From assembly GCF_004010195.1 (NCBI RefSeq), contig NC_057719.1, positions 11,972,002 to 12,036,001 of the forward strand: a stretch of DNA of 64,000 bases. Reading direction: 5' to 3'. The number at the start of each line of letters is the position of its first letter. The stretch's first letter is position 1. The position numbers were made by a program, and so were the translations under genes. Positions 6,771 to 64,000 of the stretch are shown in pieces. This DNA comes from Chiloscyllium plagiosum. Its lineage: Eukaryota. Under the pieces are notes generated by a model. It was not told the origin of the DNA and did not search any database. It worked only from the letters and a program-made list of their open reading frames with translations.

Positions 6771-6993
6771 AGGAGAAAGTGAGGTCTGCAGATGCTGGAG
6801 ATCAGAGCTGAAAATGTGTTGCTGGAAAAGCGCAGGTCAGGCAGCATCCAGGGAACAGGAGAATCGACGTTTCGGGCATAAGCCCTTCTTCAGGAAACCT
6901 GGATTCCTGAAGGGCTTATGCCCGAAACGTCGGTTCTCCTGTTCCCTGGATGCTGCCTGACCTGCTGCGCTTTTCCAGCAACACATTTTCAGC
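6771..6993. mobile_element. Fold-back PLE family A mini-element inserted at the start of a CR1 fragment
   Basis: About 90-bp inverted arms (6806-6897 vs 6904-6993) plus an extra tail on the left arm; imperfect flanking duplication agcct(at)gtgtg. Confidence 0.85.
6866..6893 (-). ncRNA. Minimal hammerhead ribozyme core (PLE family A)
   Basis: CUGAAGA-A-GGGC uuau GCCC-GAAACGUC: both conserved boxes, stem II, palindromic ACGU in place of helix III, and a GUC cleavage triplet. Confidence 0.75.
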
Positions 6994-7985
6994 CTATGTG
7001 TGAAGCCACAGGAGATGGGGGAAATACTAAACAAGTATTTTACATCAGTGTTTACTGTGGAGAAGGGCTTGGAAGATATCAAATGTGGGGAAATAGATGG
7101 TGATTTTTTAAAAATGTCTGTATTACAGAGGAGGAAGTACTATAGGCCTTAAAACGCATAGAAGTGGATAAATCCTCAGGACCTGATCCTAGAACTCCGT
7201 GGGAAGCTGAGGAAGTGATTGCTGGGCCCCTTGCTGAGGTATTTTTATGATCAATAGTCACAGATGAGGTGCCAGAAGACTGGAGACTGGCTAACATGGT
7301 GCCAATATACAAGAATGGTGGTAAGGAAAAGCCAGGCAACTATAGATCAATGAGCCTGACATCGGTGGTGGGCAAGTTGTTGGAGGGAACCCGGAGAGAC
7401 AGGACGTACATGTATTTGGAAAGGGAAGAATTGATTAGGGATAGTCAACATTGTTTTGTGAGAGGTAATCATATCTCACTAACTTGATTGAGTTTTTTTT
7501 TGAAGAAGTAAAAAAGGATTGAGGTGGTCAGAGTGGTGATCTAGATGGACTTCAGTCAGGCGATTGACAAGATTCCTTATGGTAGACTGGTTGGCAAAGT
7601 TTAATCACGTGGAATACAGGGAGAACCAGCCATTTGGATACAGAACTGGCTCGAAGGTAGAAGACAGAGGGTGATGTTCGAGGATTGCTTTTCAGACTGG
7701 AGGCCGGTGACCAATGGTGTGCCACAAGGATCGGTGCTGGATCCACTGCTGTTCGTCATTTATATAAATGATATGACTGAACATAGGGGGTATAGTTACT
7801 AAGTTTGCAGATGACATCAAAATTGGAGATATAGTGGACAGCGAAGAGGGTTACCTCAGATTACAACAGGATCTGGATCAGATGGGTCAGTGCATTGCGA
7901 AGTGGCAGATGGAGTTTAATTTAGATAAATGTGAGGTGCTGCATTTTGGGAAAGTACATCTTAGCAGGACTTACACACTTAATAT
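6994..7985 (+). mobile_element. CR1/HER1-like LINE ORF2 (RT) fragment
   Basis: PEDWRLANMVPIYKNG...NYRSMSLTSVVGK, VPQGSVL and FADD motifs, with frameshifts. Confidence 0.92.
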
Positions 7986-8269
7986 ATTTAATCCTCTTTT
8001 TAAACAAAAACAAATATCAAAGTAAAATATACAACAGAAAATCAGAAACTAATAGCTAAGGAAAGTTAAAAGTATTAGATCAAAGGAAGAGGCTTACAAA
8101 AACCTCAAGGCTGGAAGGAATTTAAAATTTGGCAAAAGATAAAAACTTTCTAAAGGCAGCATATTTAAGAATTTTATAAAGACAAAGGTGAACTAGACAG
8201 CAATGTAAGAGTTTTTTTCAATTTGTAAAATGGAAGAGATTAGCAGAGACAAAACATGGGTCCAATAGA

Positions 8270-8945
8270 AGCATAGAATCATACAGGACAGAGGCCATTT
8301 GGCCTATCAAATAAGCACTGACAGAAACCACTCACTCAATCTCCTACAGCTCCACTTTCTAGAATTTAAATGTTATTATATTTCAAGTGCCAAAATGCTT
8401 CTTTGGTTGAGGTTTCCTGCCTCAGCTCCCTCCCAGGCAGTGCATCCCAAATTCCCACCACCCTCTGACCAGAAGGCAGAAGTTTAAACCAAGCAGTAAG
8501 TGCCTTAGGTGGTCTGGGAAAATAATTTTTCTACCAGAGCGTGGTAGAAACATGGAACATGCTACGTGAGGGGGTGCGGAAAGCAGGTATTCTAGCAACA
8601 TTTAAAAAGCATCTGGATGAGCACTTAAAATGCCAGGGTATGATAGGTTATGAACCAAGTACAGGTAAACATAATTCGTGGAGGTTGGTACCTGTTGGTC
8701 AACATAGACGTTGCAGGCCAAATGGCCTGTTTGTATACCATATGACTGACTGAATGAAACAAATTTTCCTCAAATCCCTAAATCTGTTGCTGTTCATCTT
8801 AAAAGCCTATCTCTTATCAATGAACATTTAACTAAGGTGAACAGTTGCTGTCCATTTGCTCTGTCCATGCCATTCAATTTTATACACCTCAATCAGGTCC
8901 CTGTTTGATCTTCACTGCTCTAAAGAAAACAGCCCAAGTTTAACC
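8270..8945. mobile_element. Interleaved degraded CR1 3' ends (minus piece interrupted by a plus piece at about 8480-8750)
   Basis: WNML...AGILATFKKHLD is the CR1 ORF2 C-terminus; the flanks match its reverse complement. Confidence 0.6.
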
Positions 8946-12735: not shown

Positions 12736-12962
12736 ACAAAAAAAAAAACAAATTGCAAGGAAAATTCAGATCCGGCAATATCTCTAGACAGAAAGTGGAG
12801 TTAACACCTCAAGCCCAGTGACCCAGAACCCGTTCTGAAGGAGGGTCACTGGGCCTGAAGTGTCAATTCTGCTTTCTCCCCACAGATGCTGCCAGACCTG
12901 CTGAGTTTCCTCAATAATTTCTGTCTTTCTGATTTCTAACATCTGCAGTTCTTTGCCATTAT
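12736..12962. mobile_element. Fold-back PLE family D mini-element
   Basis: Diverged inverted arms around about 12825-12835, a decayed hammerhead-like ctgaaggagggtcactgggcctgaagtgtc, and a flanking 16-bp duplication with 2 mismatches (12720-12735 / 12963-12978). Confidence 0.65.
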
Positions 12963-13316: not shown

Positions 13317-13490
<174 letters not shown>

Positions 13491-14231: not shown

Positions 14232-14542
14232 GATCCCATTCAGTGCAGAAACAGGGCATTTGGCCCAACAAATCCACACCAGCACTTCACTCATATCCAT
14301 CCCCTGACCTTTAACCTGTAACCCTACATGTCTCATGGAGAATGCACCTAACCTACACATGCTTGAAATTATGGGCAATTTTGCATGGCAAATCCAACTA
14401 ACTTGCACATCTTTGGACTGTGGAAGGAAACCAATGCAGATGCAGGGAGAACATGCAAACTCCACACAGACAGAAGCCTAAGGGTGGAAATTAAACCCGG
14501 GTCCCTGGTAACATGAGGTAGCAATGCTAACTACTGAGCCAT
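14232..14542 (-). mobile_element. HE1-like V-SINE
   Basis: Reverse complement of head, V-domain and tail. Confidence 0.85.
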
Positions 14543-14614
14543 CCCTGATATTTCTGAATGGCAAAGTAATTTTTCACACCTAAATTACCAAATACACAAT
14601 TACATTGAAAGTTA

Positions 14615-21444: not shown

Positions 21445-22590
21445 TAGAAAGTTTTGGAGAAGATTTGTAGCTCAGACTGAGGTTTTGGATGTAGGTTTAC
21501 TCGCTGAGCTGGAAGGTTCATTGCCAGAGGTTTCGTCACCCTACTAGGTAACATCTTCAGCAAGCCTCCAAACTAAGCACTGTTGGTTTTTCCTGCTAGG
21601 TTTGGGTTTCCTTGGGTTGGTGATGTCATTTCCTGTTCTTTTTTCCTTAGAGGCTGGTAAATGGGATCCAAGTCAATGTGTTTGTTGGAATGCCAAATTT
21701 CTAGGAGTTCTCATGCACGTCTGTTTGGCTTGTCCTAGGACGGATATGTTGTCCCACTCAAAGTGGTGCCTTTCCTCATCCATATTTAAGGATACTAGTG
21801 AAAGTGGGTCATGTCTTGTTGTGGCTATGTTCATGTATCCTGGTGGCTAGTTTTCGGTTTGTCCAATGTAGTGTTTCTTAGAGTTCTTGCAAGGTATTTT
21901 GTAAATGACATTAGTTTTGCTCGTTATCTGTATAGGGTCTTTCAAGTTCATTAAGCTACTGTTTTGGTGTGTTGATGAGTTTGTGGGCTACCATGATGCC
22001 AAGGGGTCTGAATAGTCTAGCAGTCATTTCTGTGATGTCTTTCATGTAGGGGAGTGGCTAGGGTTTCTGGATGTGTTTTGTCTGCTTGTTTGGGTTTGTT
22101 GCTGAGAAATCAGCAGACTGTGTTCATTGGGTAGCCATTCTTTTTGAATAGACTGATTTTCCTCTGCTCTGCGTAGTTCCTGTGCGCTGCAGTGTGGTGG
22201 CTTGTTGAAATAACATTCTGATACAGGTTCGTTTGTGGGTGTTGGGATGATTGCTTCTATAGTTCAATATTTGGTTTGTATGTGTTGTTTGCCTGTAGAT
22301 GCTGGTTTGAAGATCCCCTTTGACTGTTCGCTCTACAGTGACATCTAGGAATGGTTGTTTTCCTCCTCTTTAGTGAATTTTATGCCAGTAAGGGTATTAT
22401 TGATGGTCTTGAAAGTTCCCTCTAACTTGTTTAGTTTAGTGATGACATCCATTTAGCAGACCCAGATTTTGGGCTGGATGGTTGGCAGAACTGTTTGTTC
22501 GAGTCTCTGCATTATTGCCTCCGCTAAGATTCCTGATATCAGAGATCCCATGGGTGTTCCTTTGGTTTGTCTGTAGGTTTTGTTGTTGCA
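21445..22590 (-). mobile_element. Penelope-like element, family C (Poseidon-like), 5'-truncated
   Basis: The reverse strand encodes GTPMGSLISG, RT C-terminal and GIY-YIG remnants (NVIYKIPCK...YIGQT); the terminus carries a hammerhead-like motif at about 21527-21560. Confidence 0.85.
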
Positions 22591-24480: not shown

Positions 24481-25177
24481 TTTTGGATGTAGATTTGCTC
24501 ACTGAGCTGAAAGGTTCACTTCCAGACATTTCATTATCCTACGAGGGAGCATCTTCAATGGGCCTCAGGCGAAGCAATACCGAAAATTCCTGCTTTCTAT
24601 TTATATCTTTGGGTTGGTGATGTCATTCCTGTGGTGAAGTCACTTCCTGTTCCTTTTCTCAGAGGGTAGTAAATGGGGTCTAACTGTGTGTTTGTTGGTA
24701 GAGTTCCGGTCGGAATGCCATGCTTCTAGGAATTCACGTGCGTGTCTTTGTTTGGCTTGCCCTAGGATGGATGTGTTGTCACAGTCGAAGTGGTGTCCTT
24801 CCTCATCCGTTCGTGAGGATACTAGTGAGAGAGGGTCATGTCTTTTTGTGGCTAGTTGGTGTTCATGTATCCTGGTGGCTAGTTTCATTTTTAAATTCGA
24901 CCGGAACTCTACCAACAAACAGAGTTAGACTCCATCTACCACCCCCTGAGAAAAGAGACAGGAAGTGACTTCACCACAGGAAATAACATCACCAACCCAA
25001 AGAAATCCAAACATTTTAAATAGAAAGCAGGAATTTTCAGCATTGCTTCGCCTGAGGCCCACCGAAGATATTACCTAGTAGGATAACAAAACGTCCAGAA
25101 ATGAACCTTGCAGCTCATCTAGCAAACCATATCCAAAACCTCAACCTGAGTTACAAATCTTCTCTAAACTCGTTAAG
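24481..25177. mobile_element. Fold-back PLE family C
   Basis: Minus arm 24481-24885 and plus arm about 24900-25175; TSD tgaacgaatc (24471-80) / tgaatgaatc (25178-87). Confidence 0.85.
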
Positions 25178-25385
25178 TGAATGAATCAGCCAATTCAAGG
25201 AAATGCAAGCTTAAGGATACAGATGAGCTCATAGCTTTGCTTCAATTATTGCTATGGGCATGTTAAGTCCATTTGAGCAAGAAGACTGGGTGTTAAGTTA
25301 CTAGCAAATTATTAGAATGTCAGCAAAATTATGTTAAAAATCACAACACCTGGTTATAGCCCAACAGGTTTAATTGGAAGCACAC

Positions 25386-25414
25386 TAGCTTTCGGAGCGA
25401 CGCTCCTTCATCAG
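25386..25414 (-). ncRNA. Minimal hammerhead ribozyme core (family B), PAPOLA-sense strand
   Basis: cac-CUGAUGA-A-GGAGC guc GCUCC-GAAAGCUA-gug: 3-bp helix I, stem II, palindromic AGCU and a CUA triplet. Confidence 0.8.
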
Positions 25415-25500
25415 GTGATTGTGAAGGGATCAATTGTAACAGAATTTGTAGCAAAAATATGCTATAAATTTTGTGTTACAATCGATCCCTCCACAATCAT

Positions 25501-25529
25501 CTGATGAAGGAGCGTCGCTCCGAAAGCTA
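25501..25529 (+). ncRNA. Minimal hammerhead ribozyme core (family B), plus-strand copy
   Basis: ctgatgaaggagcgtcgctccgaaagcta. Confidence 0.8.
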
Positions 25530-26091
25530 GTGTGCTTCCAATTAAACCTGTTGGACTATAACCTGGTGTTGTGTGATTTTTAACTTTGTACACCCCAGTC
25601 CAACACCGGCATCTCCAAATCATGAGCAAAATTATGGTACTCAAATCCTGAAGTGGTGCTGGAATTCTCATCCACAAATTGTTGGGTGGGGGGGCGGGCA
25701 TCAAGTTTGTTACTAATTGAGAAAATATAACATTCAACATATGTAAATATTTTCCTAAAATCAACAGCAAAGCTAGATTTATTCAGTATACCAAATTTGA
25801 GCTCACAGGTCAATGCCACCTCAGGAGAGGTTTGAGAGCATTTACACTTCTTGGCATATCTATTGCTCAATCTGTAGTACTTTCCAGAGGTATAGTCTTA
25901 ATTTAGTTTCCTTACCTGTGAATGCCCAAACCTACTGCATGTATTTAACACAACATACTTTAAATATCTGGCAGTTACATAATTTTAAACATCCTGTCAT
26001 TTGATTAATTCTCCGGTATGATTTCCAATTTCTTGGGAAGGATTACAAACTTTTTCCACTTGATTTACACAAGCAGCTTATTTACTAAATG

Positions 26092-27170
26092 GACAAAAAT
26101 CACAACACCAGATTACAGTCCAATGGGTTTATTTTAAAATAATAGATTTCGGAGCATTGCTCCTTCATCAGATGTTAGAGAAAGAGGCAGACCTTTGACA
26201 CAATTTATCAGGAAAAGATCAAACGGTCATGAAACTCATGTCAATGAATTGAACACACAAGATGACTCTTAAATCTTCAGTGAGAATGGAGGTGCAAGTT
26301 TTGATTCATTATATGCAAACCCCAGACTTTTTATTCCAAGTCACTGTCCTGAGCCAACTTCAGGTCTTAGCAATATAATGGTGGTGACACCACTGCTCAG
26401 ACAATGTATTTTAGGCATGAGGTTTTCATTCCTGAAGGGCTTATGCCAGAAACGTCGATTCTCCTGTACCCTGGATGCTGCCTGACCTGCTGCGCTTTTC
26501 CAGCAACACATTTTCAGCTCTGATCTCCAGCATCTGCAGACCTCACTTTCTCCTCAAAGATGTTTACACATTGTGTGTTGTTTGAACAAGACAATGTATC
26601 TACAAACAAAAATTCATTCTACAGCTGAGTGTGTGCACGTGCATGCATGAGAGCATGGGAAAATGTGCACACGCATGCGTATGCGAGAGAGAGGGTGAGA
26701 GCGAGTGTGCATGCGCACATAGTGGTAGTGGTGGGCCAGGGTGAGTGTGCGTGTGTGTTTGAGATGCACTGCAGGAAATAAAAGACAGATGCCAAACAAG
26801 ACCTCATGCCTGAAATACACTGTCTGACCAGAGGAGTCACCTTTATATTGATTACACCTTAAGTTGGCTCAAGGCAGTGACTTGAAAGAAATTCTGGGAT
26901 TTGCATATTAATCAATCAAAACCTGCACCTTCATTCTAAAGTTTTAAGAGCCATCTTATGTGCGTTCAATTCATTCGCATGAGTTGTATGACCCTTTGAT
27001 CATTTACTTATAAATTCTGTTTCTAAGGTTTTCCTTTCGCATGAACACCCTGATGAATAAGCAGCACACTAAAAGCTAGTGTTTTCAAATAAACCTGATG
27101 GACTATAATCTGGTGTTGTAAGATTTTTGATCTTGTCTAACCCAGTCCAACACCGGCTCCGCCGCATCAT
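26092..27170. mobile_element. Older, larger fold-back PLE family B with central GT/CA-rich simple sequence and a nested family A tail (about 26428-26555)
   Basis: Arms about 26092-26427 and 26800-27135 are diverged reverse complements sharing termini with 25334-25624; hammerhead-like core at 26143-26171 (-). Confidence 0.8.
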
Positions 27171-41025: not shown

Positions 41026-41061
<36 letters not shown>

Positions 41062-41990: not shown

Positions 41991-42219
41991 GGCTGACAGG
42001 CAAGGCAGTTGAACCCAGGGCACAGATGGGATCATGAGACTGTAATATTATCGCAAGTTCTGCCTTGATTGCCTTGTAATTTCCCTCAAATTTAACTCCA
42101 GTTGTTTCTGACCCAAGTTTCACTCTCAAACAGAATGCTAAACTCTACTGATTATGCTGACTATATCCCCAAAGGATATTTTCTGCTGGGATTATTTAAT
42201 AAACCTGCCTCATTACACA

Positions 42220-44121: not shown

Positions 44122-44385
44122 GCGTTGGATTAAGCCATTTAGGGCCATGAAGAACTTTTTTTCACTTGGGATGAAACTCTTCACTCTGGAATACTCTACC
44201 ATGGAAAAAGTAACGGAAATAAATTACTGAATGGGTTAAGGAATAAATACATAGCTACATACATAAATACATACATAGGGACAGAGCAAGAATCTAATGT
44301 TGAGGTAGAGAACTAGACATGATTGTATTGAATGCCAGATCAGATAAAATGGGCCAAATGGCCTACTCCTATTACCTATGTTTTT

Positions 44386-45809
44386 GCAAGGTTTGTAGTT
44401 CAGGTTGAGGTTTAGGGTGTAGGTTTGCTCGCTGAACTGTAAGTTTGCTATCCAGACATTTCATTACCTGGCTAGGTAACATCATCAGTGGCGACCTCCA
44501 AGTGAAGCAAAGCGGTTGTCTCCTGCTTTCTATTTTTATCTTTCTCCTGGATGGGGTTCCTGGGGTTTGTGGTGATGTCATTTCCTGGTTGTTTTCTGAG
44601 GGGTTGATAGATGGTATCTAGATCTGTGTGTTTGTTTATGGCATTGTGGTTGGAGTGCCAGGCCTCTAGGAATTCTCTGGCATGTCTTTGCTTAGCCTGT
44701 CCCAGGATAGATGTGTTGTCCCAGTCGAAATAGTGGTTTTCTTCTTCCGGTGTGTAAGGCTACGAGGGAGAGAGGGTCGTGTCTTTTTGTGGCTAGCTGG
44801 TGTTAGTGTATCCTGGTGGCTAACTTTCTTCCTGTTTGTCCTATGTAGTGTTCCTGGCAGTCCTTGCATGGAATTTTGTAGACGACGTTGGTTTTGTCCA
44901 TGGGTTGTACAGGGTCTTTTAAGTTTGTTAGTTTTTGTTTGAGAGTGTTGGTGGGTTTGTGTGCTACTAGGATTCCGAGGGTCTTAGTAGTCTGGCTGTC
45001 ATTTCTGAAACTTCTTTGATGCATAGGTGGTTAGGGTTTCTGGCTGTGTTTGGTCTGCTTGTCGTGGTTTGTTCTTGAGGAACCTGCGGACTGTTTTTTT
45101 TTGAGTATCGGTTCGTCTTGAATACGTTGGAGAGGTGGTTCTCCTCTATTTTCCGACGTTCGTCTATGCTGCAGTGTGATGTGGCTCATCAACAACACCC
45201 TCACAGGTATAAAGTTCACCAAGGAGGAAGAAACCGACAACAAACTTGCATTCCTGGACGTCACAGTCGAAAGAAAGGACAATGGAGAACTACAAACCTG
45301 CGTATACAGAAAACCGACAAACACTGACCAAATACTTAACTACACCAGCAACCATCCCAACACACACAAACAAAGCTGTATCAGAACACTATTCCAAGGA
45401 GCCACATCACACTGCAGCACAGACGAACTTCGGAAAACAGAGGAGAATCACCTATACAACGTATTCAAGAAGAACGGATACTCAAAAAAAAATACAGTCC
45501 GCAGATTCCTCAAGAACAAACCACGACAAGCAGACCAAACACAGCCACAATTCCTAGAGGCCTGGCACTCCAACCACAACACTATAAACAAACACAGATC
45601 TAGATACCATCTATCAACCCCTCAGAAAACAAACAGGAAATGACATCACCACAAACCCCAGGAACCCCATCCAGGCCAGACATATAAATAGAAAGCTGGA
45701 GACAACAGCTTCGCTTCACTTGGAGGTCACCACTGATGATGTTACCTAGCCAGGTAATGAAACGTCTGGATATCAAACCTACAGCTCAGTGAGCAAACCT
45801 ACACCCTAA
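44386..45809. mobile_element. Young fold-back PLE family C with RT C-terminus and GIY-YIG endonuclease
   Basis: Minus arm encodes NVVYKIPCKDCQEHYIGQTGRKLATRIH; plus arm encodes LAFLDVTV...VYRKPT...SNHP; TSD acctatgttttt at 44374-44385 and 45810-45821. Confidence 0.92.
45733..45766 (+). ncRNA. Minimal hammerhead ribozyme core (family C); mirror copy at 44455-44488 (-)
   Basis: cca-CUGAUGA-U-GUUACCU agcc AGGUAAU-GAAACGUC-ugg: 3-bp helix I, 7-bp stem II, ACGU palindrome and GUC triplet. Confidence 0.8.
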
Positions 45810-47015
45810 ACCTATGTTTTTATGAAACAGTAATTTCTCTGGAATAGTCAGCAGTCTGAATTAATCTGTACAAAAGAACTTCATTTAATTTCTGGAGATT
45901 AAACACATTTAACAAAGCACAGCTTTGTCACCATTCACTGAGCATGGCTGACAAACAAAAACTCATGAAATTCTGGTCATGTAGAATGCCTTGCATTAAC
46001 ATGGGCAAATGAACCCAAACATGTTTCTTTTTAAAAAGTACCCAAGAGTATTGCATCAAGTATAATTAAACCTTATGCTGAGGTGAGTCAGAAAATAGAA
46101 ACATGTCACTATTGCAACAAGGGTGCATAAGAACATCACATAAAAAATACTGCCTAGCATTTATCATACCCAATAAGCTCCCAAAAATATGGTGAAATGG
46201 TAGAATTGGACGTTCAAATGAACAGACTATTTATGAGCATGTGCAATCCCAATAATTGAAAGTGTGACCTCCATAATGAACAGAACCCCAAAACGAAATG
46301 TTAATTTCCTGCTAATACCTCAAAGAACTACCTCAGTATTGCATGTTTTAAAGTGCTTATTGCAACAAGTGATTAAAAGCATGTTTTACAAAACTTTCAA
46401 AGCAGGTAGAAGTTATATGAAGTGATCCTCGTGTATCAATGATGACACTATGGAATTACAGCCCTGGTTGCAAACAATGCTGGCAGCTTTCAATAACTTC
46501 CCAAAGATGCTTCACCAAGTAGTAACTTTGACTGCCTACAAGCATTTTCCTGTATTTTTGAAAAGTTCCTTAAATCCACCACAAAGTAAATCTGACTCCC
46601 CAGATAATTCTCTCTGCTCATGCCAGAACACCGCCTAGAATCCATAAAAGACTGCAAGTTGTACCTCTGAAAATAAAGACCTCCTTCCTCTCAGTCGGCT
46701 GTGATAACTGGCAAAGTCAAGCAGCCTTTTCTCTCTCCTGTCCACACAAAAAAAACCTAAAATAGATCTCAGCCAAGTTACAAATCAGGAACGAAGACGC
46801 TGATGTTTTTCTTGACAGAAGCTTTATTCTATTGCATGGTGTTCTCAGTGCTCCAGTTATCCTTTTCTTATACTCTTGAAAAAGAGCAAAATCAGGTCTT
46901 AGTGCTCAAAAATAATTAAACTACCTAACTGACAAGACATTAACTTATTTCAGATATCCAGATTTGTAGGAATCTCTTAAAAAGATCCCTCTTCAGCCTG
47001 GCAACGTGAAATATT

Positions 47016-47236
47016 CGGAGAAAGTGAGGACTGCAGATGCTGAAGATCAGAGTCAAACAGTGTGGCGCTGGAAAAGCACAACAGGTCAGATAACAGCCGA
47101 TGAGCAGGAGAATCGATGTTTCAGACATAAGCCCTTCAGCAGCCCTGATGAAGGGCTTATGTCCACAATGTCAATTTTCCTGCTCCTTTGATGCTGCCTG
47201 ACCAACTGTGCTTTTCCAGCACCACACTTTTCAACA
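47016..47236. mobile_element. Fold-back PLE family A-like mini-element
   Basis: Inverted arms around about 47142; perfect TSD gtgaaatatt at 47006-47015 and 47237-47246. Confidence 0.85.
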
Positions 47237-47281: not shown

Positions 47282-47582
47282 GATTAAATTAGATTCCCTA
47301 CAGTATGGAAACAGGCCCTTCATCCAAGTCCACACTGACCCTATGACGAGTAACCAACAAGACCCATTTCCTACCCTATATTTTACCCCTGAATAAAGCA
47401 CCTAACACGATAGGCAACTTAGCATGGCCAATTCACCTGGCATGCACATCTTTGGATTGTGAGAGGAAACTCATACCGACACAGGGAGAACGTGCAAACT
47501 CCACATAGACAGCTGCCTGAGGTGCGAATCAAACCCTGGTCCCAGGCACTGTGAGGCAGCAGTGCAAGCCACTGAGCCACCT
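47282..47582 (-). mobile_element. HE1-like V-SINE
   Basis: Reverse complement of the full SINE. Confidence 0.88.
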
Positions 47583-51344: not shown

Positions 51345-51967
51345 GAAGACCATTCACTCCAATTTTCTAGCCTCGAGATTTGATTTTTTTTTATGTCCAT
51401 TTGTGTCCAGTGGATTGACAAGTTTCCATTTACTATTTGCTCATCAGCATATCAGTGATGATTTAGGTGTAAAAATTATTCACATTTTGAAAATCTGTTT
51501 TAGTAAAAAAAAAGACTGATTATGTATTCCACTCTGTGCACTCCATCTGTAATGCCCAAAGTCTGCATTAAACATATCTGGTGCAGAACTAACTTGGTCA
51601 ATATTCTCACATCTGTCTGGATTATAATGAGCACTAGTCCCTGATTAGTCCTCGAAAGCCACCTCCACTACAATCTATTTCCTCAAATACTGTGCTATCC
51701 TTGTCCACCAAGCACAAAGAGCTCATGGACATCTTTATCACTAATCGTGACAGTTTTGGCTCTTGTATCTAAAAGACATGCTGACGTTGGAGGGGATCCA
51801 CAGGAGGTTTCCAAGGAGGATCCAGAGATGAAGGGCTTATCAAGTGAGTAGGTGAGGACTCTGGGAAGACCATTCACTCCAATTTTCTAGCCTCGAGATT
51901 TGATTTTTTTTTTTATGTCCATTTGTGTCCAGTGGATTGACAAGTTTCCATTTACTATTTGCTCATC
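51345..51967 (+). repeat. ~101-bp direct duplication (51345-51445 and 51865-51967)
   Basis: The two copies are identical apart from poly-T length. Confidence 0.95.
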
Positions 51968-52184
51968 TGCTCGACAGGATAGAACGTACTCGGGCAAGAT
52001 GTTTCAGCTCAGAGAGACCACAACCTGAACGCACAGCCTAAGAGTGAAGCGACAACCTTTTAGAACAGAGATGAGGAAGAATTTCTTCAGCCAGAGTGTG
52101 GTAACACCGTGGAACTTATGGCAATGAGTGTATAGAGGACAGGGATAGACAGGTTCTTGACTAATAAGGGAATTAAGTGTTACA

Positions 52185-53944: not shown

Positions 53945-55335
53945 AAGCTCTTTGAGGGGATTCTGACAGATAGGATCTGCATGCACCTAGAAAGGTAAGG
54001 ACTGATCAAGGATAGTCAGCATGGTTTTATGCACAGGAGGTCATGTCTCAATGTGATTGAGTGTTTTTTTTTTAAGATGACCAAGACGACAGATGAAGGC
54101 AGAGCAAATAGAGATTGTCTACATGAACTTTAGCAATGCCTTCGACAAGGCTCCACGTGACAGACTGATTAGTAAGGTTAAATCACATAGAATCTGGGGA
54201 AAGCTAGCCACTTGGAGGATGGAGCTAGAGAGTGTTACTGTTCAGTCTGACGGTCTGTGACCAGTGTAGCTCAAGGCTTGGTTATAAGTCCATTGTTTAT
54301 CTAAATGACAAAAAGCAAATTGGATGAGAACACAGGAGACATGGTTGGTAAGTTTGTGAATGGCACCAAAGGTGGGGACATAGTGGACAGGGAACTAAGT
54401 TGATCTCATGATCAACTGGGCCAGTGAGCCGAGGAATGCCAGATGGAGCTCAAGTTAGACAAATGCGAGGTGTTGCATTTTGTTAAGACAAACCTGGGCA
54501 GTACTTAAACAGTTAATGGTAGAGTCAAGATTAATCAGCCCTCCTTTCCTCATGAAGGACTCCTGCCCGAACCGCTGATTTTCCTGCTCCTCGGATGCTG
54601 TGGCTCTAATCTTGGCTGATCTCCAGCATCTGCAGTCCTTACTTTCGCCTAGTTAATGGTAGAGACATGGGGAATGTGGACAAACAGAAAAACCTAGGAG
54701 GTTCAGGTACATCGTTCGTTCAAAGTGGCACCACAGATAGGGTGGCAAAAGCAACATTCAGCACACTTGCATTCATGGGTCAAAGCACGAGGTACAGGAG
54801 TTTGAACAACATGTTACAACTGCACAAGAGATTAATGAGGCCACATTTGGAGTAGTGTGTACAATTCTAGTCACCTTGCTAGAGGATGGGTGTTATTAAA
54901 TTGGAATAGGTACAGAAAAGATTTACAAACATGTCACAAAGACTAGAAGATTTGAGTTTAAGGAGAGGCTGAATAGGCTGAGGCTTTTTTTCCCCCTTTA
55001 GTCGTGTAGAAGGCTGAGGGGTGATCTTATGAAGGTTTAAATGGTCATGAGGGGCAGAGATAAAGGTGAATAGCTATGGTCTTTTTTCCCAGGTTATGGG
55101 AGTTTAAAACTAGAGGGCACAGGTTTAAGCAAGAGGGGAAAGATTTAAAAGGGACCTGAGGGGCAAATTTTTCAGAGGGTGGCATCAATATGGAACAAGT
55201 TGCTGGAGACAGTAGTAGAGGCAGATACAATTAGAACATTTAAAAAGAAAGATTTAGAGGGATAGAGGCCAAAGGCAGGCAAATGGGACTATTTCAATTT
55301 AGGAAACCTGGTTGGGCTGAAGATACTGTTTCTGT
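53945..55335 (+). mobile_element. CR1 LINE 3' portion with nested PLE family A-like tail (54525-54650)
   Basis: RT motifs; the nested insert is flanked by a perfect 14-bp TSD agttaatggtagag (54511-54524 / 54651-54664). Confidence 0.88.
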
Positions 55336-55633: not shown

Positions 55634-56652
55634 ACTTTTCAGACTGGAGGTCTGAGGCCAGTGGTGCGCCACAAGGATCAGTGCTGCGTCCACTGCTTTT
55701 TGTAATTTATGTAAATGATTTGGATATATAGGAAGGTATAGTTAGTAAGCGTGCAGATGACACCAAAATTGGAGGTGTTAGTGGATAATGAAGGTTACCT
55801 CAGAGTACAACGGGATCTTGACCAGATGAGCCAATGGGCTGAGGAGTGGCAGATGGAGTTTAATTCAGATAAATGCGAGGTGCTGCATTTTGGAAAGGCA
55901 AATCTTAGCAGGACTTATACACTTAATGGTAAGGTCCTAGGGAGTGTTGCTGAACAAAGAGACCTTGGAATGCAGGTTCATAGCTCCTTGAAAGTGGAGT
56001 CGTAGGTAGATAGGATAGTGAAGGCTGTGTTTGGTATGCTTTCCTTTGTTGGTCAGAGTATTGAGTATAGGGGTTGAGAGGCCATGTTGCAGCTGTTCAG
56101 GACATTGGTTAGGCCACTTTTGGAATACTGTATACAATTCTGGTCTCCTTCCTATTGGAAGGATGTTATGAAACTTGAAAGGGTTCAGAAAAGATTTACA
56201 AGGATGTTGCCAGGGTTGGAGAATCTGAGCTACAGGGAGAGTCTAAATAGGCTGAGGCTGTTTTCCCTGGAGCGGAGGCTGAGGGATGACCTTATAGAGG
56301 TTTATAAGGTCACAAGGAGCATGGATAGGATAAATAGACAAGGTCTTTTCCCTGGGGTGGGGAGTCCAAGACTAAAGGGCATAGGTTTAGGGTGGGAGGG
56401 GAAAGATATAAAAGGGACCTAAGGGGCAACTTTTTCACACAGAGGGTGGTATGTGTATGGAATCAGAGGAAGTGGTGGAGGCTGGTACAACTGCAGCATT
56501 TAAAAGACATCTGGATGGGTATATGAATACGAAGGTTTTAGAGGGATATGGGCCAAGTGCTGGAAATGGGACTAGATTAGATTAGGATACCTAGTCAGCA
56601 TGGATGAGTTCAACCAAAAGGAATGATTCCATGCTGTACATCTCTATGACTC
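55634..56652 (+). mobile_element. Young CR1/HER1 3' portion
   Basis: WQMEFNSDKCEVLHFG and RPLLEYCIQFWSP motifs; tail ctctatgactc. Confidence 0.93.
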
Positions 56653-57736
56653 AAGGTTTTCAAATACTAGTTTCACAATCTTTTATGCCCACCTGGTTCA
56701 GTTCAGTTGACTGGACAGCTGATTTGTGATGCAATCTGACGCCAATAGCAAGAGTTCAAGTCCTGCACTAACTGACTATGAGGAAGTCTCCTTTTCAATC
56801 TCTCCCCTCACCTGTGGTGGTGACCCTCAGATTAAACCAGACCTGACGTCTCTATCAGAATATACACCTATGGGCTGGTAAGACTAAGGACTCTTCACTT
56901 TTATTGCTTCAAAACCGACTAATACTGGAAAATTAGTTATTTTCAGAATAAAAATAGCTACATGGATTAAAAGGGAGACAAATGTTCTCCTGCTGCATGT
57001 CAAATTTCCTTAAAGGCAGCATGCCCACTTATACAGAGTTTTTGCAGCAAGAGCAGAGCGGCGCACATCACTGCCCGTTCTACTGGTTTCAATTAAGATT
57101 GCTTCCAAAGGTCATCATTTTAAACTTGCCAGGACGTGGACATACCCTTTTGATTATATTATCAATTATACGAAGGGTGTGTGTTTTAGAACAAAGAATG
57201 TGTGTCTGGGAAGGAAACAGCGTTTCAACAAGCAGAATTTTGGCAATTCGGTGTTTTAAAATAACCAACGCGGCGATTTAAAACGGGTTCACTCCGAATA
57301 GAAATCGTGGCCGACAAGATTGTAAATCCGAACCAGTCACAGAAAATGCCGTCTATTACCGAGGGATAAAGCGTTTCAAATACTAAAGGAAACGTACTGA
57401 AAATTGTGCCGATAGAGAAATAAAACCACATCACCCCCTCTCCCCAACAACACACACGAGCGAATAAAACATCCAGTTAGTGACAGATAAGCATTCTGCT
57501 CGTTAAACAACGGCAAATTAAAATCGAAGACCAAGTATCCGGCGTTGCGGCGGGTGAAAGGCCTGATCGCGGGGGCGGGGGGTGGTGAGGGCGAAAGGCC
57601 TGAACTCCGGTGGGTTTTAAAAGGCCTGGACGCGGGGGCGGCCTACCGGCTCCTGGGGGCGGGTGAATGACTGCAGTCGCCTCCAGCAGCGGGCCCTCTC
57701 TCTCCCCGATCCCTGGCTCACCATCACGGTACTCAC

Positions 57737-57744
57737 TATGGCAT
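57737..57744 (-). CDS. PAPOLA: Poly(A) polymerase alpha, coding exon 1 (ATG CCA TA|gtgagt)
   Basis: Minus strand reads gccgagccATGCCATA followed by the strong donor GTGAGT, with good Kozak context, inside a CpG island. It splices in frame to exon 2 to give MPYPAANPGS..., resembling the vertebrate PAPOLA N-terminus MPFPVTT. Confidence 0.9.
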
Positions 57745-57778
57745 GGCTCGGCCCGGCTCCGTTCCACTTCCACTATCC

Positions 57779-57805
57779 CTAACGGTCGCCGAGGTTCACT
57801 TTCAT
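57779..57805 (-). promoter_or_regulatory. Upstream ORF 2 (MKVNLGDR*)
   Basis: caaggATGAAAGTGAACCTCGGCGACCGTTAG, ending 34 nt before the main ATG. Confidence 0.5.
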
Positions 57806-57996
57806 CCTTGCGCCCCCGAGATTGATTCTTTCCTTTCCTTTTCCTGAGCGGGAAAATAAAATCGCTCCTTCGGATGTCGAAGGAATTTCTGCCCCCCCAC
57901 CCCAACTACCGTTATGTCTTTGATTTTAAACTCGCCCCGCCTTTTGTTGTGTCCCCAACGCCGACGGCACCCTCTTCTCCCTCCCTTGCTCCTCCT

Positions 57997-58023
57997 TTAC
58001 AACAAAGCAGCCGGTCCCAACAT
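57997..58023 (-). promoter_or_regulatory. Upstream ORF 1 (MLGPAALL*) in the putative PAPOLA 5' UTR
   Basis: gtcgccATGTTGGGACCGGCTGCTTTGTTGTAA, with a purine at -3, about 280 nt upstream of the main ATG. Confidence 0.6.
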
Positions 58024-58276
58024 GGCGACAGACAGACAAAAACAACAAACCCGCCGCAGCCAGCACCAGCCGGCTCGGCGACCTCGGCGCCGCCTTCCCC
58101 CTTCCGTCAGCGCGCGCACGACGCCATGCGCGCCGCGTCCGTACGTCGCTGGACGCCCCCAGCACGCATGCGCACTTACACGTAAGGCTGTCGGGAAATT
58201 CTGTACATCGCCAACACCAAGGAGCTTGCGCATTTACAGCCCTTTTGCGCAAGCTCCTTAGTGCTTTTCAGCTGCA

Positions 58277-58540
58277 CAATCTCGTTGATAGTGCGCATGC
58301 TCCCTGGTGTCTGAACGAACAGCCTCTTTGATAGTGAGCATGCTCCCTATTGTCCGTCAACGCAGCCTCGTTATTAGTGCGCATGCCCGTGTATCTGGAA
58401 GCACAACCTCATAGCTAAAATATTGTTAAGCGTTGATTTTGCTTTTTCTTCATCGATATCGTTAGATCTGCTGAGTTTCTTCAGCAATTTCTATTTTTGT
58501 TCCAGCCTTGTTCATAATGCACATGCTCTTTGGTGTCAGC
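58277..58540. repeat. Degenerate 43-bp tandem repeat: 3 adjacent copies plus a displaced copy, each with an NRF1-like core
   Basis: Units start at 58277, 58320, 58363 and 58503; consensus approximately cagcctcgttgatagtgcgcatgctccctggtgtc. Confidence 0.8.
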
Positions 58541-58886: not shown

Positions 58887-58889
58887 AAA

Positions 58890-59070
58890 AATAGGAATTG
58901 CTGGAGAAACTCGGCAGGTCTAGCAGCATCTGTGGAGAGAAAACAGAGCTAAGGTTTTGAGTTCAGTGACCCTGATTCAGAACTCTTTACTGACTGAAAA
59001 TTAACTTTGCTTTCTTTCCAGAGATGTTGCCAGACCTGTTGAGTTTCACCAGCAATTTTTGCTTTAGTTT
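58890..59070. mobile_element. Fold-back PLE family D mini-element
   Basis: aattgctggagaaactcggcaggtctagcagcatct... mirrored by ...agatgttgccagacctgttgagtttcaccagcaatt. Confidence 0.7.
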
Positions 59071-59544
59071 CATTCTTTTTTCCTATTATTTCAATAATAA
59101 TTTGAAACTTACTCTTTGACCCTTAGAGTTGAAGAATAGTTTAAGGCTTAAACCTGAAATCGGTTCAACAAGCGCTCTCTCCGAGTTCATTATCCTCTCT
59201 TGAACTAACCTCTAAGTAAATGTCCCACTTTCAGGACCTTTGACATTGCCAGCTAATCAGAAACAAAAACAAATAACTGGAAATGCTCAGCAGCATCTGT
59301 GAGGACAAATCAGAGTTAACATTTGAGTACGGTGACCCTTCCTCAGACTTGATGATAGCTAGGAAAACGCCAATTTTTATGCAAAACACATATCGTGAGG
59401 GGTGGGGGTAAGAAGTAAATGATAGGTGCGGATTGAGCCCAAAAAGAGAGAGAACAGTTGGACAGACACAAGAGTGGATAACGATCTGGCTAGGACGGTG
59501 AATAGCTGTTAATGGACACTGTTACTGGCTTACAATGGGTAATA

Positions 59545-60241
59545 ATCTTCGAGGAGAAAGTGAGGACTGCAGATGCTGGAGATCAGAGCTGAAAATGTGT
59601 TGCTGGAAAAGCACAGCGGGTCAAGCAGCATCCAAGGAACAGGAGAATCGACGTTTCGGGCATAAGCCCTTCTTCAGGAATGAGGAAAGTGTGTCCAGCA
59701 GGCTAAGATAAAACGTAGGGAGGAGGGACTTGGGGGAGGGGCGTTGGAAATGCCATCGGTGGAAGGANNNNNNNNNNNNNNNNNNNNNNNNNNNNNNNNN
59801 NNNNNNNNNNNNNNNNNNNNNNNNNNNNNNNNNNNNNNNNNNNNNNNNNNNNNNNNNNNNNNNNNNNNNNNNNNNNNNNNNNNNNNNNNNNNNNNNNNNN
59901 NNNNNNNNNNNNNNNNNNNNNNNNNNNNNNNNNNNNNNNNNNNNNNNNNNNNNNNNNNNNNNNNNNNNNNNNNNNNNNNNNNNNNNNNNNNNNNNNNNNN
60001 NNNNNNNCTACCTGACCTCTCCGCCCCCACCCCACTCTGGCCTATCACCCTCAACTTGACCTCCTTCCACCGATGGCATTTCCAACGCCCCTCCCCCAAG
60101 TCCCTCCTCCCTACCTTTTATCTTAGCCTGCTGGACACACTTTCCTCATTCTTGAAGAAGGGCTTATGCCCAAAACGTCGATTCTCCTGTTCCTTGGATG
60201 CTGCCTGACCGGCTGCGCTTTTCCAGCAACACATTTTCAGC
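59545..60241. mobile_element. Young fold-back PLE family A (N-gap 59768-60007 in the centre); intact hammerhead core at 59650-59677 (-)
   Basis: Inverted arms; perfect 14-bp TSD tacaatgggtaata (59531-59544 / 60242-60255). Confidence 0.88.
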
Positions 60242-60275
60242 TACAATGGGTAATAGCAGACTATATGATAACAAG

Positions 60276-60445
60276 AAGAAAGTGAGCTTTGCAGATGCTG
60301 GAGACAAAACATATGGTGTTGGAAAAGCACAGCCGGTCAGGCAGCATCTGAGGAACAGGAACGCTCGAAATGTTGACTCTCCTGCTCCTAGGATGCTGCT
60401 TGACCGGCTGTGGTGTTCCAGCACCACACTTTTTGACTCTTTATG
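60276..60445. mobile_element. Short fold-back PLE family A-like element
   Basis: TSD tgataacaag (60266-60275 / 60446-60455); inverted arms. Confidence 0.8.
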
Positions 60446-60794: not shown

Positions 60795-61118
60795 GGGCGG
60801 GACGGTGGCACAGTGGTTAGCACTGCTGCCTCACAGCGCCTGAGACCCGGGTTCAATTCCCGCCTCAGGCGACTGACTGTGTGGAGTTTGCATGTTCTCT
60901 CCGTGTCTGTGTGGGTTTCCTCCGGGTGCTCCGGTTTCCTCCCACAGTACAAAGATGTGCAGGTCAGGTGAATTGGCCATGCTAAATTGCCCGTAGTGTT
61001 AGGTAAGGGGTAAATGTAGGGGCATGGGTGGGTTGCGCTTCGGCGGGTCAGTGTGGACTTGTTGGGCCAAAGGGCCTGTTTCCACGTTGTAATGTAATCT
61101 AAAATCTAATCTAATCTA
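60795..61118 (+). mobile_element. Young HE1-like V-SINE
   Basis: Intact B-box (ggttcaattcc), retained CpGs and an (aatct)n tail. Confidence 0.92.
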
Positions 61119-61799
61119 AAGCACTGATTCACCATGAAAGGTATCTTTGGGCCCTTGGATACTGAGGACAGAGGAGGTAAATGGGCTCAGGTTTGTTGTA
61201 GTGGTCCAATGAAGCTCAGCCTAAACTGGAAGAACAACATCTCATTCTCCACTTGGGGAGCCTGCAACCTTCTAGACTCAATATTGAGTTCAATATCTTT
61301 AAGGTTTTAAAACTCCTATGTCCTAGACTTCACCCCACACATCATGCCTTGTTATCACATTGTCTGCTATTACACACAAGCCATTGTTAGCCAGTAACAG
61401 TCTCCATTAATAACTATTCACCCTCCGAGCCAGACCATTATCCACTCCCTCTTTGGGCTCTATCTCCACCTATCATTTACTCCTTACCTCTTTCCCCCAC
61501 CCCATGTCCTGCATAAAAATTGACATTTTGCTTACTATAATCAGTTCTGGGGAGGGTCATCAGTTTCTGATTTCTCTTCACAGGGGCTGCCAGACCTGCT
61601 GAGCATTTCCAGCAATTTCTCTTTCTAATTTTGTTCCTGATTTACAGCATCTGCAATTCTTTTGGTTTTAATGACCTCAAAATCCTTGTCATGTCAATCA
61701 CAAATAAGGTACTCTGATCACTTATTGTCACTTTTTGCACCTCCTTTGGTACCTACCCTTGAAAAAAAAATTCCCCCATTTCAATTAGAACTACCACAC

Positions 61800-63322
61800 A
61801 TGAAGCCACTATTTGAGAGGAGTGGGAAGGACAAGCCAGGGAACTATAGGCCAGTGAGCCTGATGTCGGTGGTGGGTATGTTGTTGGAGAGAATCCTTAG
61901 GGACTGGATGTACATGTATTTGGAAAGGCAAGGACTGATTAGGGATAGATTAGAGGAGTGCCGGAAAAGCACAGCAAGTCAGGCAGCATCCAAGGAGCAG
62001 GAAAAGGGACGTTTCGGGCAAAAGGCCTTCATCAGGAATGTAGGGTAGTCAACATGGATTTGTGCATATCTGACAAACTTGACAGCATTTTTTGAAGAAG
62101 TAACAAAGAGGATTGATGAGGGCAGAGCTGTGGATGTGATCTATATGGACTTCAGTAAGACATTTGACAAGGTTCCCCATGGGAGACTGGTTAGCAAGGT
62201 TAGATCTCATGGAATACAGGAAGAACTCGCCATTTGGATACGGAAATGGCTCAAAGGTGTAAGACAGAGGGTCGGGGTGGAGGGTTGTTTTTCAGACTGG
62301 AGGCTTGTGACCAGTGAAGTGCCACAAGGATCGGTGCTGGGTCCACTACTTTTCATCATTTATATAAATGATTTGGATGTAAGCATAAGAAATATAGTTA
62401 GTAAGTTTGCAGATGACACCAAAATTGGAAGTGTAGTGGACAGCGAAGAAGGTTACCTCAGATTACAACGGGATCTCGATCAGATGAGCAAGTGGGCTGA
62501 GAAGTGGCAGATGGAGTTTAATTTAGATAAATGAGAGGTGCTGCATTTTGGAAAAGCAAATCTTAACAGGACTTTTACACTTAATGGTAAGATCCGAGGA
62601 GAGGATAGAGACCTTGGAGTGCAGGTTCATAGCTCCTTGAAAGTGGAGTTGCAGGTTTATAGGGTGGTGAAGAAGGCGTTTGGTATGCTTTTCTTTATTG
62701 GTCAGAGTACTGAGTACAGGAGTTGGGAAGTCATGTTGTGGCTGTGCAGGGCATTGGTTAGGCCAATTTTGGAATATTGCATGCAATTCTGGTCTCCTTC
62801 CTATTGGAAGGATGTTATGAAACATGAAAGGGTTCAGAAAATGTTTACAAGGATGTTGACAGGGTTGGACAATTTGAGCTATAGAGAGAGGTTGAATAGG
62901 TGAGGACTGTTTCCCCTGGAGCATCACAGGTTGAGGGGTGACTTTATAGAGGTTTATAAAATCATGAGGGGCATGGATAGGATAAATAGACAAAGTCTCT
63001 TCCCTGGGGTGAAGGAGTCCAGAACTAGAGAGCATAGGTTTAGGGTGGGAGGGGAAAGATACGAGAAAGATCAAAGGTGCAACCTTTTCTCGCAGAGGGT
63101 GGTACATGTACAGAATGAGCTGCCAGAGGAAGTGGTGGAGGTTAGTATGATTCCAACATTTAAAAGGCATCTGGATGGGATTATGAATAGGAAGGGCTTG
63201 GAGGGATTTGGGCCGGGTGCTGGCAGGTGCGACTAGATTGGATTGGGATATCTGGTCGGCGTGGATGAGTTGGACTAAAGGGTCTTTTTCCGTGCTGTAC
63301 ATCTCTCTGAACTCTATGACTC
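61800..63322 (+). mobile_element. CR1/HER1 LINE 3' half with nested PLE family A tail (about 61948-62040, minus)
   Basis: YMDFSKTFDKVPH, PQGSVLGPLLFIIYINDL and KFADDTK motifs. Confidence 0.93.
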
Positions 63323-63577
63323 TACCTTTCAAGCCTCAAGTGATCAGCATTTAGACTCCTTTCACCACAACATTGTTCTCATTACAAATTGCTCAACCGG
63401 TTATGGGTTATGTTTCAGTGTATTGATGAGGCTTTATCGGGAATTCAGTGCACTATATTGGTCCTTATTCAAGAAAGGATATGTATGCATTGAAGTAGTT
63501 CAGACAAGATGTACTAAACTAAACTAGAATGAATGGGTTTTCTTAAGAGGAAATGTTAAATATGCTAGTCTTCTATC

Positions 63578-64000
63578 TAGGAGAAAGTGAGGACTGCAGA
63601 TGCTGGAGATCAGAGCTGAAAATGTGTTGCTGGAAAAGCACAGCAGGTCAGGCAGCATTCAAGGAACAGGAGAATCGACGTTTCGGGCATGAGCCCTTCT
63701 TCAAGAATGAGGAAAGTGTGTCCAGCAGGCTAAGATAAAAGGTAGGGAGGAGGGACTTGGGGGAGGGGCGTTGGAATTGCGATAGGTGGAGGGAGGTCAA
63801 GGTGAGGGTGATAGGCCGGAGTGGGGTGGGGGCGGAGAGGTCAGGNNNNNNNNNNNNNNNNNNNNNNNNNNNNNNNNNNNNNNNNNNNNNNNNNNNNNNN
63901 NNNNNNNNNNNNNNNNNNNNNNNNNNNNNNNNNNNNNNNNNNNNNNNNNNNNNNNTGCAGCGGATGCAGTAAATGATGTGTGTAGAGGTGCAGGTGAACT
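63578..64000 (-). mobile_element. PLE family A 3' end (runs into N-gap 63846-63955 and off the window)
   Basis: Near-identical to 59550-59767. Confidence 0.88.

Follow-up and report, generated by a model that had tools for sequence, protein, structure and literature searches.

Known Minimal Hammerheads and the Window

Cervera and de la Peña described in 2014 (PMC4209133) a minimal hammerhead that lies in the pseudo-LTRs of metazoan Penelope-like elements, among them Poseidon and Neptune of fish. In the parts cited here, that report already gives several families per genome and pairs on opposite strands, and it remarks that evidence in vivo is lacking. Craig et al. 2021 (PMC8557442) call the function of the hammerhead unclear where they treat it, and Frangieh et al. 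2024 (PMC11167929) found that insertion in vitro did not require the ribozyme. Li et al. 2026 (10.64898/2026.07.22.740005) describe non-LTR retrozymes whose type I hammerheads have the same repeats as their source, and the one chondrichthyan genome in the portion cited was positive.

The motif that recurs in the window, by which we mean the whole 64-kb stretch of DNA analyzed, matches this minimal hammerhead and is of a known kind. It shares the type I core without a helix III loop, the palindromic 15.1–16.1 segment, the unpaired base between A9 and 10.1 and the short helix I. The arrangement is also the same, being mostly single truncated copies and opposite-strand pairs 100–700 bp apart. The parts of PMC4209133 cited name no cartilaginous fish, whereas the host here is Chiloscyllium plagiosum.

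Hammerhead Cores

A motif scan of the window found the family A, B and C cores exactly where the earlier note had put them. Five are perfect: 6866–6893(−) and 59650–59677(−) in A, 25386–25414(−) and 25501–25529(+) in B, and 45733–45766(+) in C. The variants at 26143–26171 (B) and 44455–44488 (C) have a single change each, and stem II of the one at 62008–62035 (A) holds a C.C mismatch. A homology census, intact and decayed cores together, comes to 26. The recurrence is real, and the earlier figure of roughly 20 was somewhat low. It includes the decayed D copies at 12835, 58951 and 59317, previously placed at about 12836, 58970 and 59330.

Could these be chance matches to a short motif? At the level of two core mismatches they partly are, because shuffled sequence also yields about five per window (5.2, vs. 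18 in the window). At one mismatch or fewer, the window has nine and the shuffles a mean of 0.24, and none of 25 dinucleotide shuffles contains a perfect core. A random 760 kb of the genome gives 39 strict motifs vs. 0–1 in 10 shuffles. Exact cores number 56,022 for A, 14,834 for B, 3,671 for C and 232 for D genome-wide, and reversed-pattern controls give 0. Chance is thus refuted for intact cores and as a general account deserves practically no credence.

The minimal type I anatomy proposed earlier is supported. The core boxes stand as described, but the palindrome takes in the last A of GAAA (GAA-ACGU-C). The loopless helix III reads ACGU in A, C and D; B has AGCU instead, and the swap is compensatory. 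The motif scans demanded a palindrome here, whereas a tail-seeded profile did not. An unpaired base between A9 and 10.1 is found in 39/39 strict motifs, with 0 or 1 extra base permitted. Stem II of A has only 4 bp. The 10.1/11.1 closing pair is G-C in A, B and D; in the Poseidon-type set (n = 25), it is G-U in 16, G-C in eight and unpaired in one, and the pair that closes C1 stem II is G-U. The outer pair of helix I (n = 25) is C-G 14 times, U-A four, G-C two, U-G two and other three times. Helix I cells are paired in 92.7% vs. 23–43% in slid controls, a comparison among related sequences that carries no probability. These pair counts leave out the A/B/D core alignment, in which B was shifted. 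Compensatory change in helix I is therefore seen, although the helix is smaller than first drawn in family A, with just 2 bp, a U.U and one more pair.

The core is conserved beyond its flanks and invariant across families with unrelated stems and tails. Eleven catalytic-core positions are identical among lineages whose tails compare at shuffle level, and CUGANGA ... GAAA ... UH is kept in the majority letters of tail-seeded A1, A2, B and D copies. The invariant core and the helix I changes bear out selection on RNA structure, but only for the source elements, since single copies decay neutrally. A core shorter by three nt occurs in 343 exact copies. We rejected a ribozyme-dead subfamily as its source; it is spread over both loop variants and over long and short copies, which recurrent slippage fits better. 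An Rfam scan of the window gave no hammerhead match up to E = 10. All 11 matches were to other families, and the best, mir-680 at 6842–6954, reflects the hairpin folding of an inverted unit.

Elements and Lineages

The Penelope-like origin proposed earlier holds. Reverse transcriptase (RT) and GIY-YIG-type endonuclease motifs lie upstream of the hammerhead in A, B and C, where the endonuclease is C-terminal to the RT and has two internal cysteines, while in D only the endonuclease C-terminus is seen there. The hammerhead sits 3′ of these motifs, at 40–100 nt from the 3′ end of a copy. Pfam matched GIY-YIG (E 0.002–0.007) and RVT_1 (E 0.004) in 4/8 proteins, all below curated cut-offs; in 73 of the 126 window ORFs, it gave only two RVT_1 matches, both in another repeat family. 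The four distinct families of the earlier note reduce to three lineages, with D an older sister of A: D and A tails have 70–72% identity over 60 nt vs. about 56% when shuffled. In the RT region, A and B are 27–28% identical, and either is 22–27% identical to C. A zinc-finger-like linker, CxxxxCxxC, reads PCHRRNCKTC in A and is of the PCHGRRCKTC type in 9/11 B loci. Such a linker also lies upstream of the D motif in one locus (L089), where it may belong to a neighboring copy, and none was seen in family C translations. By this linker motif, which also occurs in Nematis, and not by a tree, A (with D) and B are taken to be Neptune-type and C Poseidon-type.

In family A, subfamily A1 forms a head-to-head unit at 6771–6993, with the intact core 6866–6893 on its long (−) arm and a short (+) arm from 6903 that begins G-ATTC and has a core without 3 nt. 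A second head-to-head unit spans an assembly gap at 59552–60242 (intact core 59650–59677(−), variant 60152–60179(+)). Terminal A1 copies lie at 42214–42376(−), with a core without 3 nt, and at 63579–63845(−), with core 63677–63704 and C3 changed to U. Subfamily A2 is represented by a 3′ remnant at 5683–6731(+), in which a broken RT end, the linker PCHCRNCKTC and a YIGET endonuclease precede a decayed hammerhead (6652–6679) and a short tail. A terminal A2 copy at 28615–28770(+) has core 28679–28706 with U16.1 changed to C, and a leader-sized one at 61946–62039(−) starts at −4 (core 62008–62035). Further family A sequence includes an older head-to-head unit at 47017–47228 (decayed cores 47115–47142(−) and 47145–47172(+)), a decayed core with a short tail piece at 54539–54600(+) (core 54549–54576) and a decayed inverted unit at 60270–60440.

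Family B has a head-to-head unit at 25333–25622, with intact cores 25386–25414(−) and 25501–25529(+), one short and one long tail, and a 12-bp flanking duplication, AGCAAAATTATG. An older inverted unit at 26094–27170 (cores 26143–26171(−) and 27050–27078(+)) has an A1 copy nested in it at 26426–26554(+). The C1 head-to-head unit at 44383–45813 retains RT-thumb and endonuclease remnants and has cores 44455–44488(−) and 45733–45766(+, intact); an ATG opens stem II, and the 12-bp flanking duplication is ACCTATGTTTTT. C2 is present as a remnant at 21453–22405(−), with endonuclease motifs and a core (21527–21560) whose helix III palindrome is broken, and as a head-to-head remnant at 24481–25168 (decayed cores 24525–24558(−) and 25062–25095(+)). 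Family D comprises a decayed inverted unit at 12767–12952 (core 12835–12864(+)), decayed copies at 58893–59515 (cores 58951–58980(−) and 59317–59346(−)) and a remnant at 61174–61670(+), where the D terminal repeat and its tail come after the endonuclease C-terminus. All told, the window motifs are very likely dead pseudo-LTR remnants of endonuclease-bearing Penelope-like elements of three lineages.

Extrapolated genome-wide, there are ~180,000 intact cores and ~1.1 million copies. Distinct tail copies number 28 in 63 kb of the window and 251 in the 760 kb random sample. The multi-family burst suggested earlier is not borne out: the window has a density usual for this genome, and the families are of unequal age, which points to successive waves.

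Architecture of the Copies

Tail-seeded copies of A, B and D (n = 235) have their 5′ end at −10 to 0 in 86 cases (7.8 per nt), at −60 to −11 in 11 and no more than 3 nt from the cut in nine (1.3 per nt), so there is no enrichment of copies starting at the cut. Most short copies begin 4–8 nt upstream of the core, at an initiator-like A. Family C has no such pile-up near the core (0/16). RT stalling at stem II was rejected as the source, the peak being upstream of the hairpin. A splice acceptor at helix I was rejected in A1 because ATTC is not preceded by AG there. Family D has CAG-TT after a pyrimidine run, which is compatible with a splice acceptor in that family.

The base preceding the start is often an untemplated G. 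Among A1 matches that do not have the template C, the base before ATTC is G in 61, A in 26 and T in 13 of the first 100 of 6,419, counted by hand, with ~27 G expected. As a control, G precedes 11/20 A1 starts at −4 vs. 9/38 internal starts (8.6 expected), and in B, 11/11 starts at −8 to −4 have it. No excess was seen in A2 (11/44 at −4, where A1 copies contaminate the bin) or in D (1/13 non-templated starts). From these starts, the short copies probably derive from a capped leader that had not been cut.

Pairs among the 251 copies are head-to-head in 65 cases, tail-to-tail in nine and tandem in eight. The head-to-head pairs join a long and a short end in 53/65 (50% expected), and inverted units often have a 9–17 bp flanking duplication. 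They cannot be natural dimers of the ribozyme, because the two motifs are on opposite strands. The very high number of 90–130 bp copies, and the derivation of retrozymes from these repeats (10.64898/2026.07.22.740005, in the part cited), would suit a non-autonomous family in its own right, like a retrozyme or a SINE, with independent transcription and spread. Retrozymes are head-to-tail arrays of units each with a hammerhead, whereas the copies here are solo or head-to-head. Tandem same-strand pairs are rare in the sample, and the 14 tandem-repeat rows of the window include no hammerhead array. Subfamily variants are common to short and long ORF-linked copies, and each unit has its own junction. 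We therefore regard an independent family as very improbable.

U6 Junctions

At eight loci, all outside the window, U6 is joined to the first base past the predicted cut. These are 8/10 of the U6–Penelope junctions found, all on one predicted ribozyme bond. Two gapped U6-to-tail patterns gave five matches, all joined at the cut and none elsewhere in the 30-nt gap. In L242 and L293, a single inverted insertion has the identical, exact U6 junction on both of its arms, the pattern that two rounds of copying from one pre-ligated chimeric RNA would give. In L299, one of two arms is inexact. A pattern for U6 joined to a second Poseidon-type family matched nothing, so L299 stands alone; one for U6 joined to family C likewise had no match. 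As indirect evidence, the U6 fusions suggest that these weak ribozymes likely cut in living cells. The genome would then record both RNA states, the uncut capped leader in hundreds of thousands of copies and germ-line cleavage with RNA-level ligation in rare U6 fusions, which we consider probable. Single-cell polyA data of a related organism (one run, 1,975 reads) showed no pile-up of molecule ends, and a second raw run gave no reads. Loose read ends at 59681 were rejected as RNA ends; they are genomic copy boundaries.

The motif might instead be kept as a folding or promoter signal, an initiator or protein-binding leader that hardly cuts, with the U6 junctions marking an RT pause or a nuclease-sensitive bond. 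The start site does overlap helix I, and the majority of copies derive from uncut RNA. By nearest-neighbor energies, the dimer model (−13.3 to −15.7 kcal/mol) is unfavorable relative to two monomers folded separately (−16.4 to −25.4), and cofolding has its optimum at a structure other than the active fold. Such motifs show low activity in vitro in the data cited from PMC4209133, and 8/9 Xenopus dimers were uncut in those from 10.64898/2026.07.22.740005. A signal of this kind has to contend with the identity of all 11 catalytic-core positions, with U6 falling on the same bond in three families of dissimilar sequence and no microhomology, and with the anole motif, which cuts when protein is present (PMC11167929, in the assays cited). 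We judge it unlikely.

Proposed Mechanism

Our preferred reading, held with good confidence, is that these are dead terminal copies of three Penelope-like lineages whose predicted hammerhead would cut only as a protein-assisted RNA pair. A polymerase II promoter would start a capped RNA at helix I. The element RT would prime on two nicked target strands, at two internal sites about 55–65 and 93–100 nt past the cut, and would mostly copy uncut RNA back to the cap, which would give the insertions of 90–130 bp, whether solo or head-to-head, and their extra G. Only a minority of the RNA would be cut, leaving a 5′-OH end that a ligase such as RtcB may join, rarely to U6.

The least certain step is the purpose of the cut. 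Locus L181, of family B, has a repeat–ORF–repeat arrangement with repeat sequence of >200 nt lying upstream of the inferred start, which requires a circular, read-through or jumped template. Unit-length RNA might be re-ligated into circles that give more-than-unit, promoter-carrying copies, to which we assign not quite an even chance. Alternatively, the ribozyme might limit the element by removing the cap and parting the priming sites from the ORF-bearing RNA, circles having no part in it. The distance from the inferred cap to the cut is ~32–37 nt, both priming sites lie downstream of the cut, in C the cut is within the first codons, and Naiads proliferate well with no hammerhead (PMC8557442, as far as cited). 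Against a limiting role stand the template that L181 needs and the cut end, which is evidently joinable to another RNA; we hold this role possible but the less likely of the two.

Comparison with Known Systems

A search of the published literature, apart from Repbase, Dfam and subscription papers, found no report of U6–Penelope junctions or of the cap signature. The families themselves may already be listed in the supplements of PMC4209133 or 10.64898/2026.07.22.740005. The added interest lies in the junctions, which bear on whether minimal hammerheads cut in animals, and why. If the reading is true, they are the first in vivo evidence of cleavage, and the RNA-circle model of Penelope replication becomes testable. 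About a million copies in the genome provide the statistics to locate the transcription start, two priming sites and the cut. For abundance, PMC4209133 gives ~4,000 for coelacanth and 9,000 for Xenopus vs. the ~180,000 here, under different search rules.

The Neptune and Penelope/Poseidon clades, as described in the parts of Craig et al. 2021 (PMC8557442) cited, share with the elements here a C-terminal GIY-YIG endonuclease, 5′ truncation, an inverted 5′ copy and a 30–40 bp tail at one end only, and their linker zinc finger is as in A and B. PAc, a Poseidon of Anolis carolinensis (Frangieh et al. 2024, PMC11167929), is cut 26 nt past the stem II ATG; the family C ORF also starts in stem II, and its predicted cut is at 28 nt. 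Two 3′ end classes likewise agree with the two internal sites of RT initiation and the optional tail. PAc was assayed with its protein, whereas the present families are known from sequence alone; in the sections cited, that study found no RNA reads that ended at the cut, and it does not describe U6 junctions or an extra G. The U6/LINE-1 chimeras that RtcB forms by ligating RNAs (Moldovan et al. 2019, PMC6789731, in part) likewise have U6 ending in five U joined to 5′-truncated retroelement RNA. They need a 5′-OH, which hammerhead cleavage leaves, and their L1 junctions are variable, whereas the U6–Penelope junctions fall mainly on one bond.

Hammerhead cores in the window and the genome

The strict motif used for scanning was CUGANGA, an optional extra base, a stem II with 4 bp or more, GAA, a 4-nt palindrome and H. 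The window holds five perfect cores, against none in 25 shuffles, and these lie at coordinates given in the earlier note. Allowing one mismatch gives nine against 0.24 for shuffles, and in a census by similarity to the family references the total, intact and decayed cores together, is 26. There are 28 distinct copies of the tail, the terminal sequence after the core, a density typical of the genome. A genome-wide search found many exact cores in this 3.56 Gb genome (A 56,022; B 14,834; C 3,671; D 232), with reversed controls at 0. A sample of 80 stretches with 759,770 called bases, drawn from the 18 largest contigs at round-number positions, holds 39 strict motifs, versus 0–1 in 10 shuffles, and 251 copies detected via the tail alone. 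By extrapolation the whole genome would hold ~180,000 intact cores, and copies would number ~1.1 million. Three family A cores (window 6907, 26432, 42284) are missing 3 nt of a GAAGAA or GAUGAA run; the commonest form of this shorter core has 343 exact copies genome-wide.

Elements carrying the cores

In family A, an RT, then a CxxxxCxxC linker and finally a YIGET endonuclease (window 5683-6470) precede the motif. A genome-wide first look gave 71,527 candidates for this RT, 150 of which were scored. Family B is an element separate from A. Its locus L181 has a repeat-ORF-repeat order with an ATG at the long-tail end, and further loci have the linker in 9/11 and the YIGET motif in 11/11. Family C shows the motifs YVDD and YIGQT and lacks a linker finger; its ATG lies inside stem II. 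By the linker rule for clade assignment, as stated in passages of Craig 2021 (PMC8557442), A and B would be of Neptune type and C of Poseidon type. RT-region identity among the three is 22–28%, and Pfam matches to the element proteins are weak and under cut-offs. Families D and A have a tail in common, D being the older of the two. A further Poseidon-type family, absent from the window, occurs at L138, L184:236-279(-), L204:834-877(+) and L299; its core is CUGAGGA-U- with a GUCACCU/GGGGGAC-type stem II, and it has a tail of its own.

Conservation and folding of the core

All 11 core positions are identical across the six family references, whereas tail identity between lineages is at shuffle level (0.47–0.58 vs 0.46–0.53). 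The references were chosen by their cores, but the majority letters of tail-seeded copies of A1, A2, B and D reproduce the core. Among Poseidon-type motifs, 25 distinct ones were compared: 92.7% of cells are paired, and helix I has C-G, U-A or G-C as its outer pair. Within families, decay is greatest at CpG positions, as in dead DNA. Helix III is a loopless ACGU or AGCU, so pairing is possible only between two molecules; computed energies give the dimer model a lower stability than a pair of folded monomers. The tails of A2, B and C (L025, L181, L069, L051) have a predicted long-range stem, whose 3' strand falls between the short and long 3' ends.

Copy ends and insertion

The 5' ends of 235 copies of A, B and D seeded by their tails, taken from local alignments and blurred for old copies, pile up near C3. 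Counted from C3, they number 86 at -10 to 0, 54 at +1 to +20, 11 at -60 to -11 and 43 further upstream, with 32 in no bin. Nine fall within 3 nt of the cut. Where A1 has no templated C before ATTC, the preceding base is G in 61 among the first 100 of 6,419. An ungapped re-walk of all collected loci, minus 30 picked for the 3-nt deletion, found G at 11/20 A1 starts at -4, 9/38 internal starts and 11/11 B starts at -8 to -4; A2 and D lack this excess of G. The start words (TCATTC, TCAGTT, CCACAA) we take to be initiator-like, and C has a TATAAA ~50 nt upstream. We read the pile-up, extra G and start words together as reverse transcription, which would proceed along the leader as far as a cap.

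The 3' ends are bimodal. Paired copies are head-to-head in 65 cases, versus 9 and 8 for the other arrangements; 53/65 combine a long end with a short one, and 27/65 have a flanking duplication of at least 9 bp. Therefore, each head-to-head pair is a single insertion primed on both strands. Contigs of sequencing runs X1 and X5 matching window 59648-59682 contain tandem repeats of 31–35 nt from inferred start to cut. Because of a shared GATTC, template switching is no less likely than ligation as their origin.

U6 junctions

Our U6 survey comprised 48 matches by Rfam search, of which 30 were obtained as loci and the others added later, with no U6 end recognised in 6/19 of the later-added stretches. 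At six family A loci (L225, L242, L291, L292, L293, L304), U6 with five terminal T runs directly into the base that follows the predicted cut. The same junction occurs in family B (L294) and on one arm of L299, which belongs to the second Poseidon-type family, and all five matches to gapped U6-to-tail patterns join exactly at the predicted cut. A genome search with patterns for C and the second Poseidon-type family gave 0 matches. Two more U6 copies (L237, L241), matched by eye, continue into the A endonuclease region. The junction loci are all outside the window. These junctions at the predicted bond are indirect evidence for ribozyme cutting. In L242 and in L293 the junction is present on each of the two arms, which could also arise if the first cDNA folded back and was copied.

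Other features of the window

A CG-rich promoter-like stretch (57500-58400) contains GCGCATGC repeats (a 43-bp array at 58281-58386) and, near 57715-57722, a possible splice donor on the minus strand; no gene was identified. If this is real, the window would be mostly intronic, and intact sense-strand cores would be tolerated in pre-mRNA. An abundant LINE-like family (39957-41994, 62041-63335, 55635-56652, 35737-36222 and others) has Pfam RVT_1 matches at 62049-62531 and 40768-41172. A ~300-bp SINE-like family (786-1097, 2106-2436, 14233-14543, 36651-36975, 47284-47581, 60795-61120) also has its sequence downstream of many genomic U6 copies. A 106-bp direct duplication (51345-51448, 51865-51970) has 97% identity.

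Comparison with known systems

The earlier naming of these motifs as PLE minimal hammerheads was right, and the kind was already known. Passages of Cervera 2014 (PMC4209133) describe the motif, extra base, palindrome, multiple families and opposite-strand pairs; inverted copies and one-sided tails appear in parts of Craig 2021, and a 2026 preprint (10.64898/2026.07.22.740005), from its partial text, includes one chondrichthyan. A literature search on shark, U6 and start-site links, mostly of titles with PMC6155905 in passages, found nothing relevant. The window motifs are new members of a known ribozyme kind and occur in very many copies; the aspect deserving a bench test is the U6 junctions together with the capped-leader signature.

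The unfavourable dimer energy agrees with passages reporting low activity of minimal hammerheads (Cervera 2014) and a protein needed by the anole Poseidon ribozyme (Frangieh 2024, PMC11167929). Family C, with its ATG in stem II, is like anole Poseidon as portrayed in the latter, and the predicted tail stem of A2, B and C resembles the stem-loop at the priming sites of PAc, the Poseidon of Anolis carolinensis. Finally, U6 is ligated to 5'-OH ends according to passages of Moldovan 2019 (PMC6789731), and this is the end type left by hammerhead cleavage.
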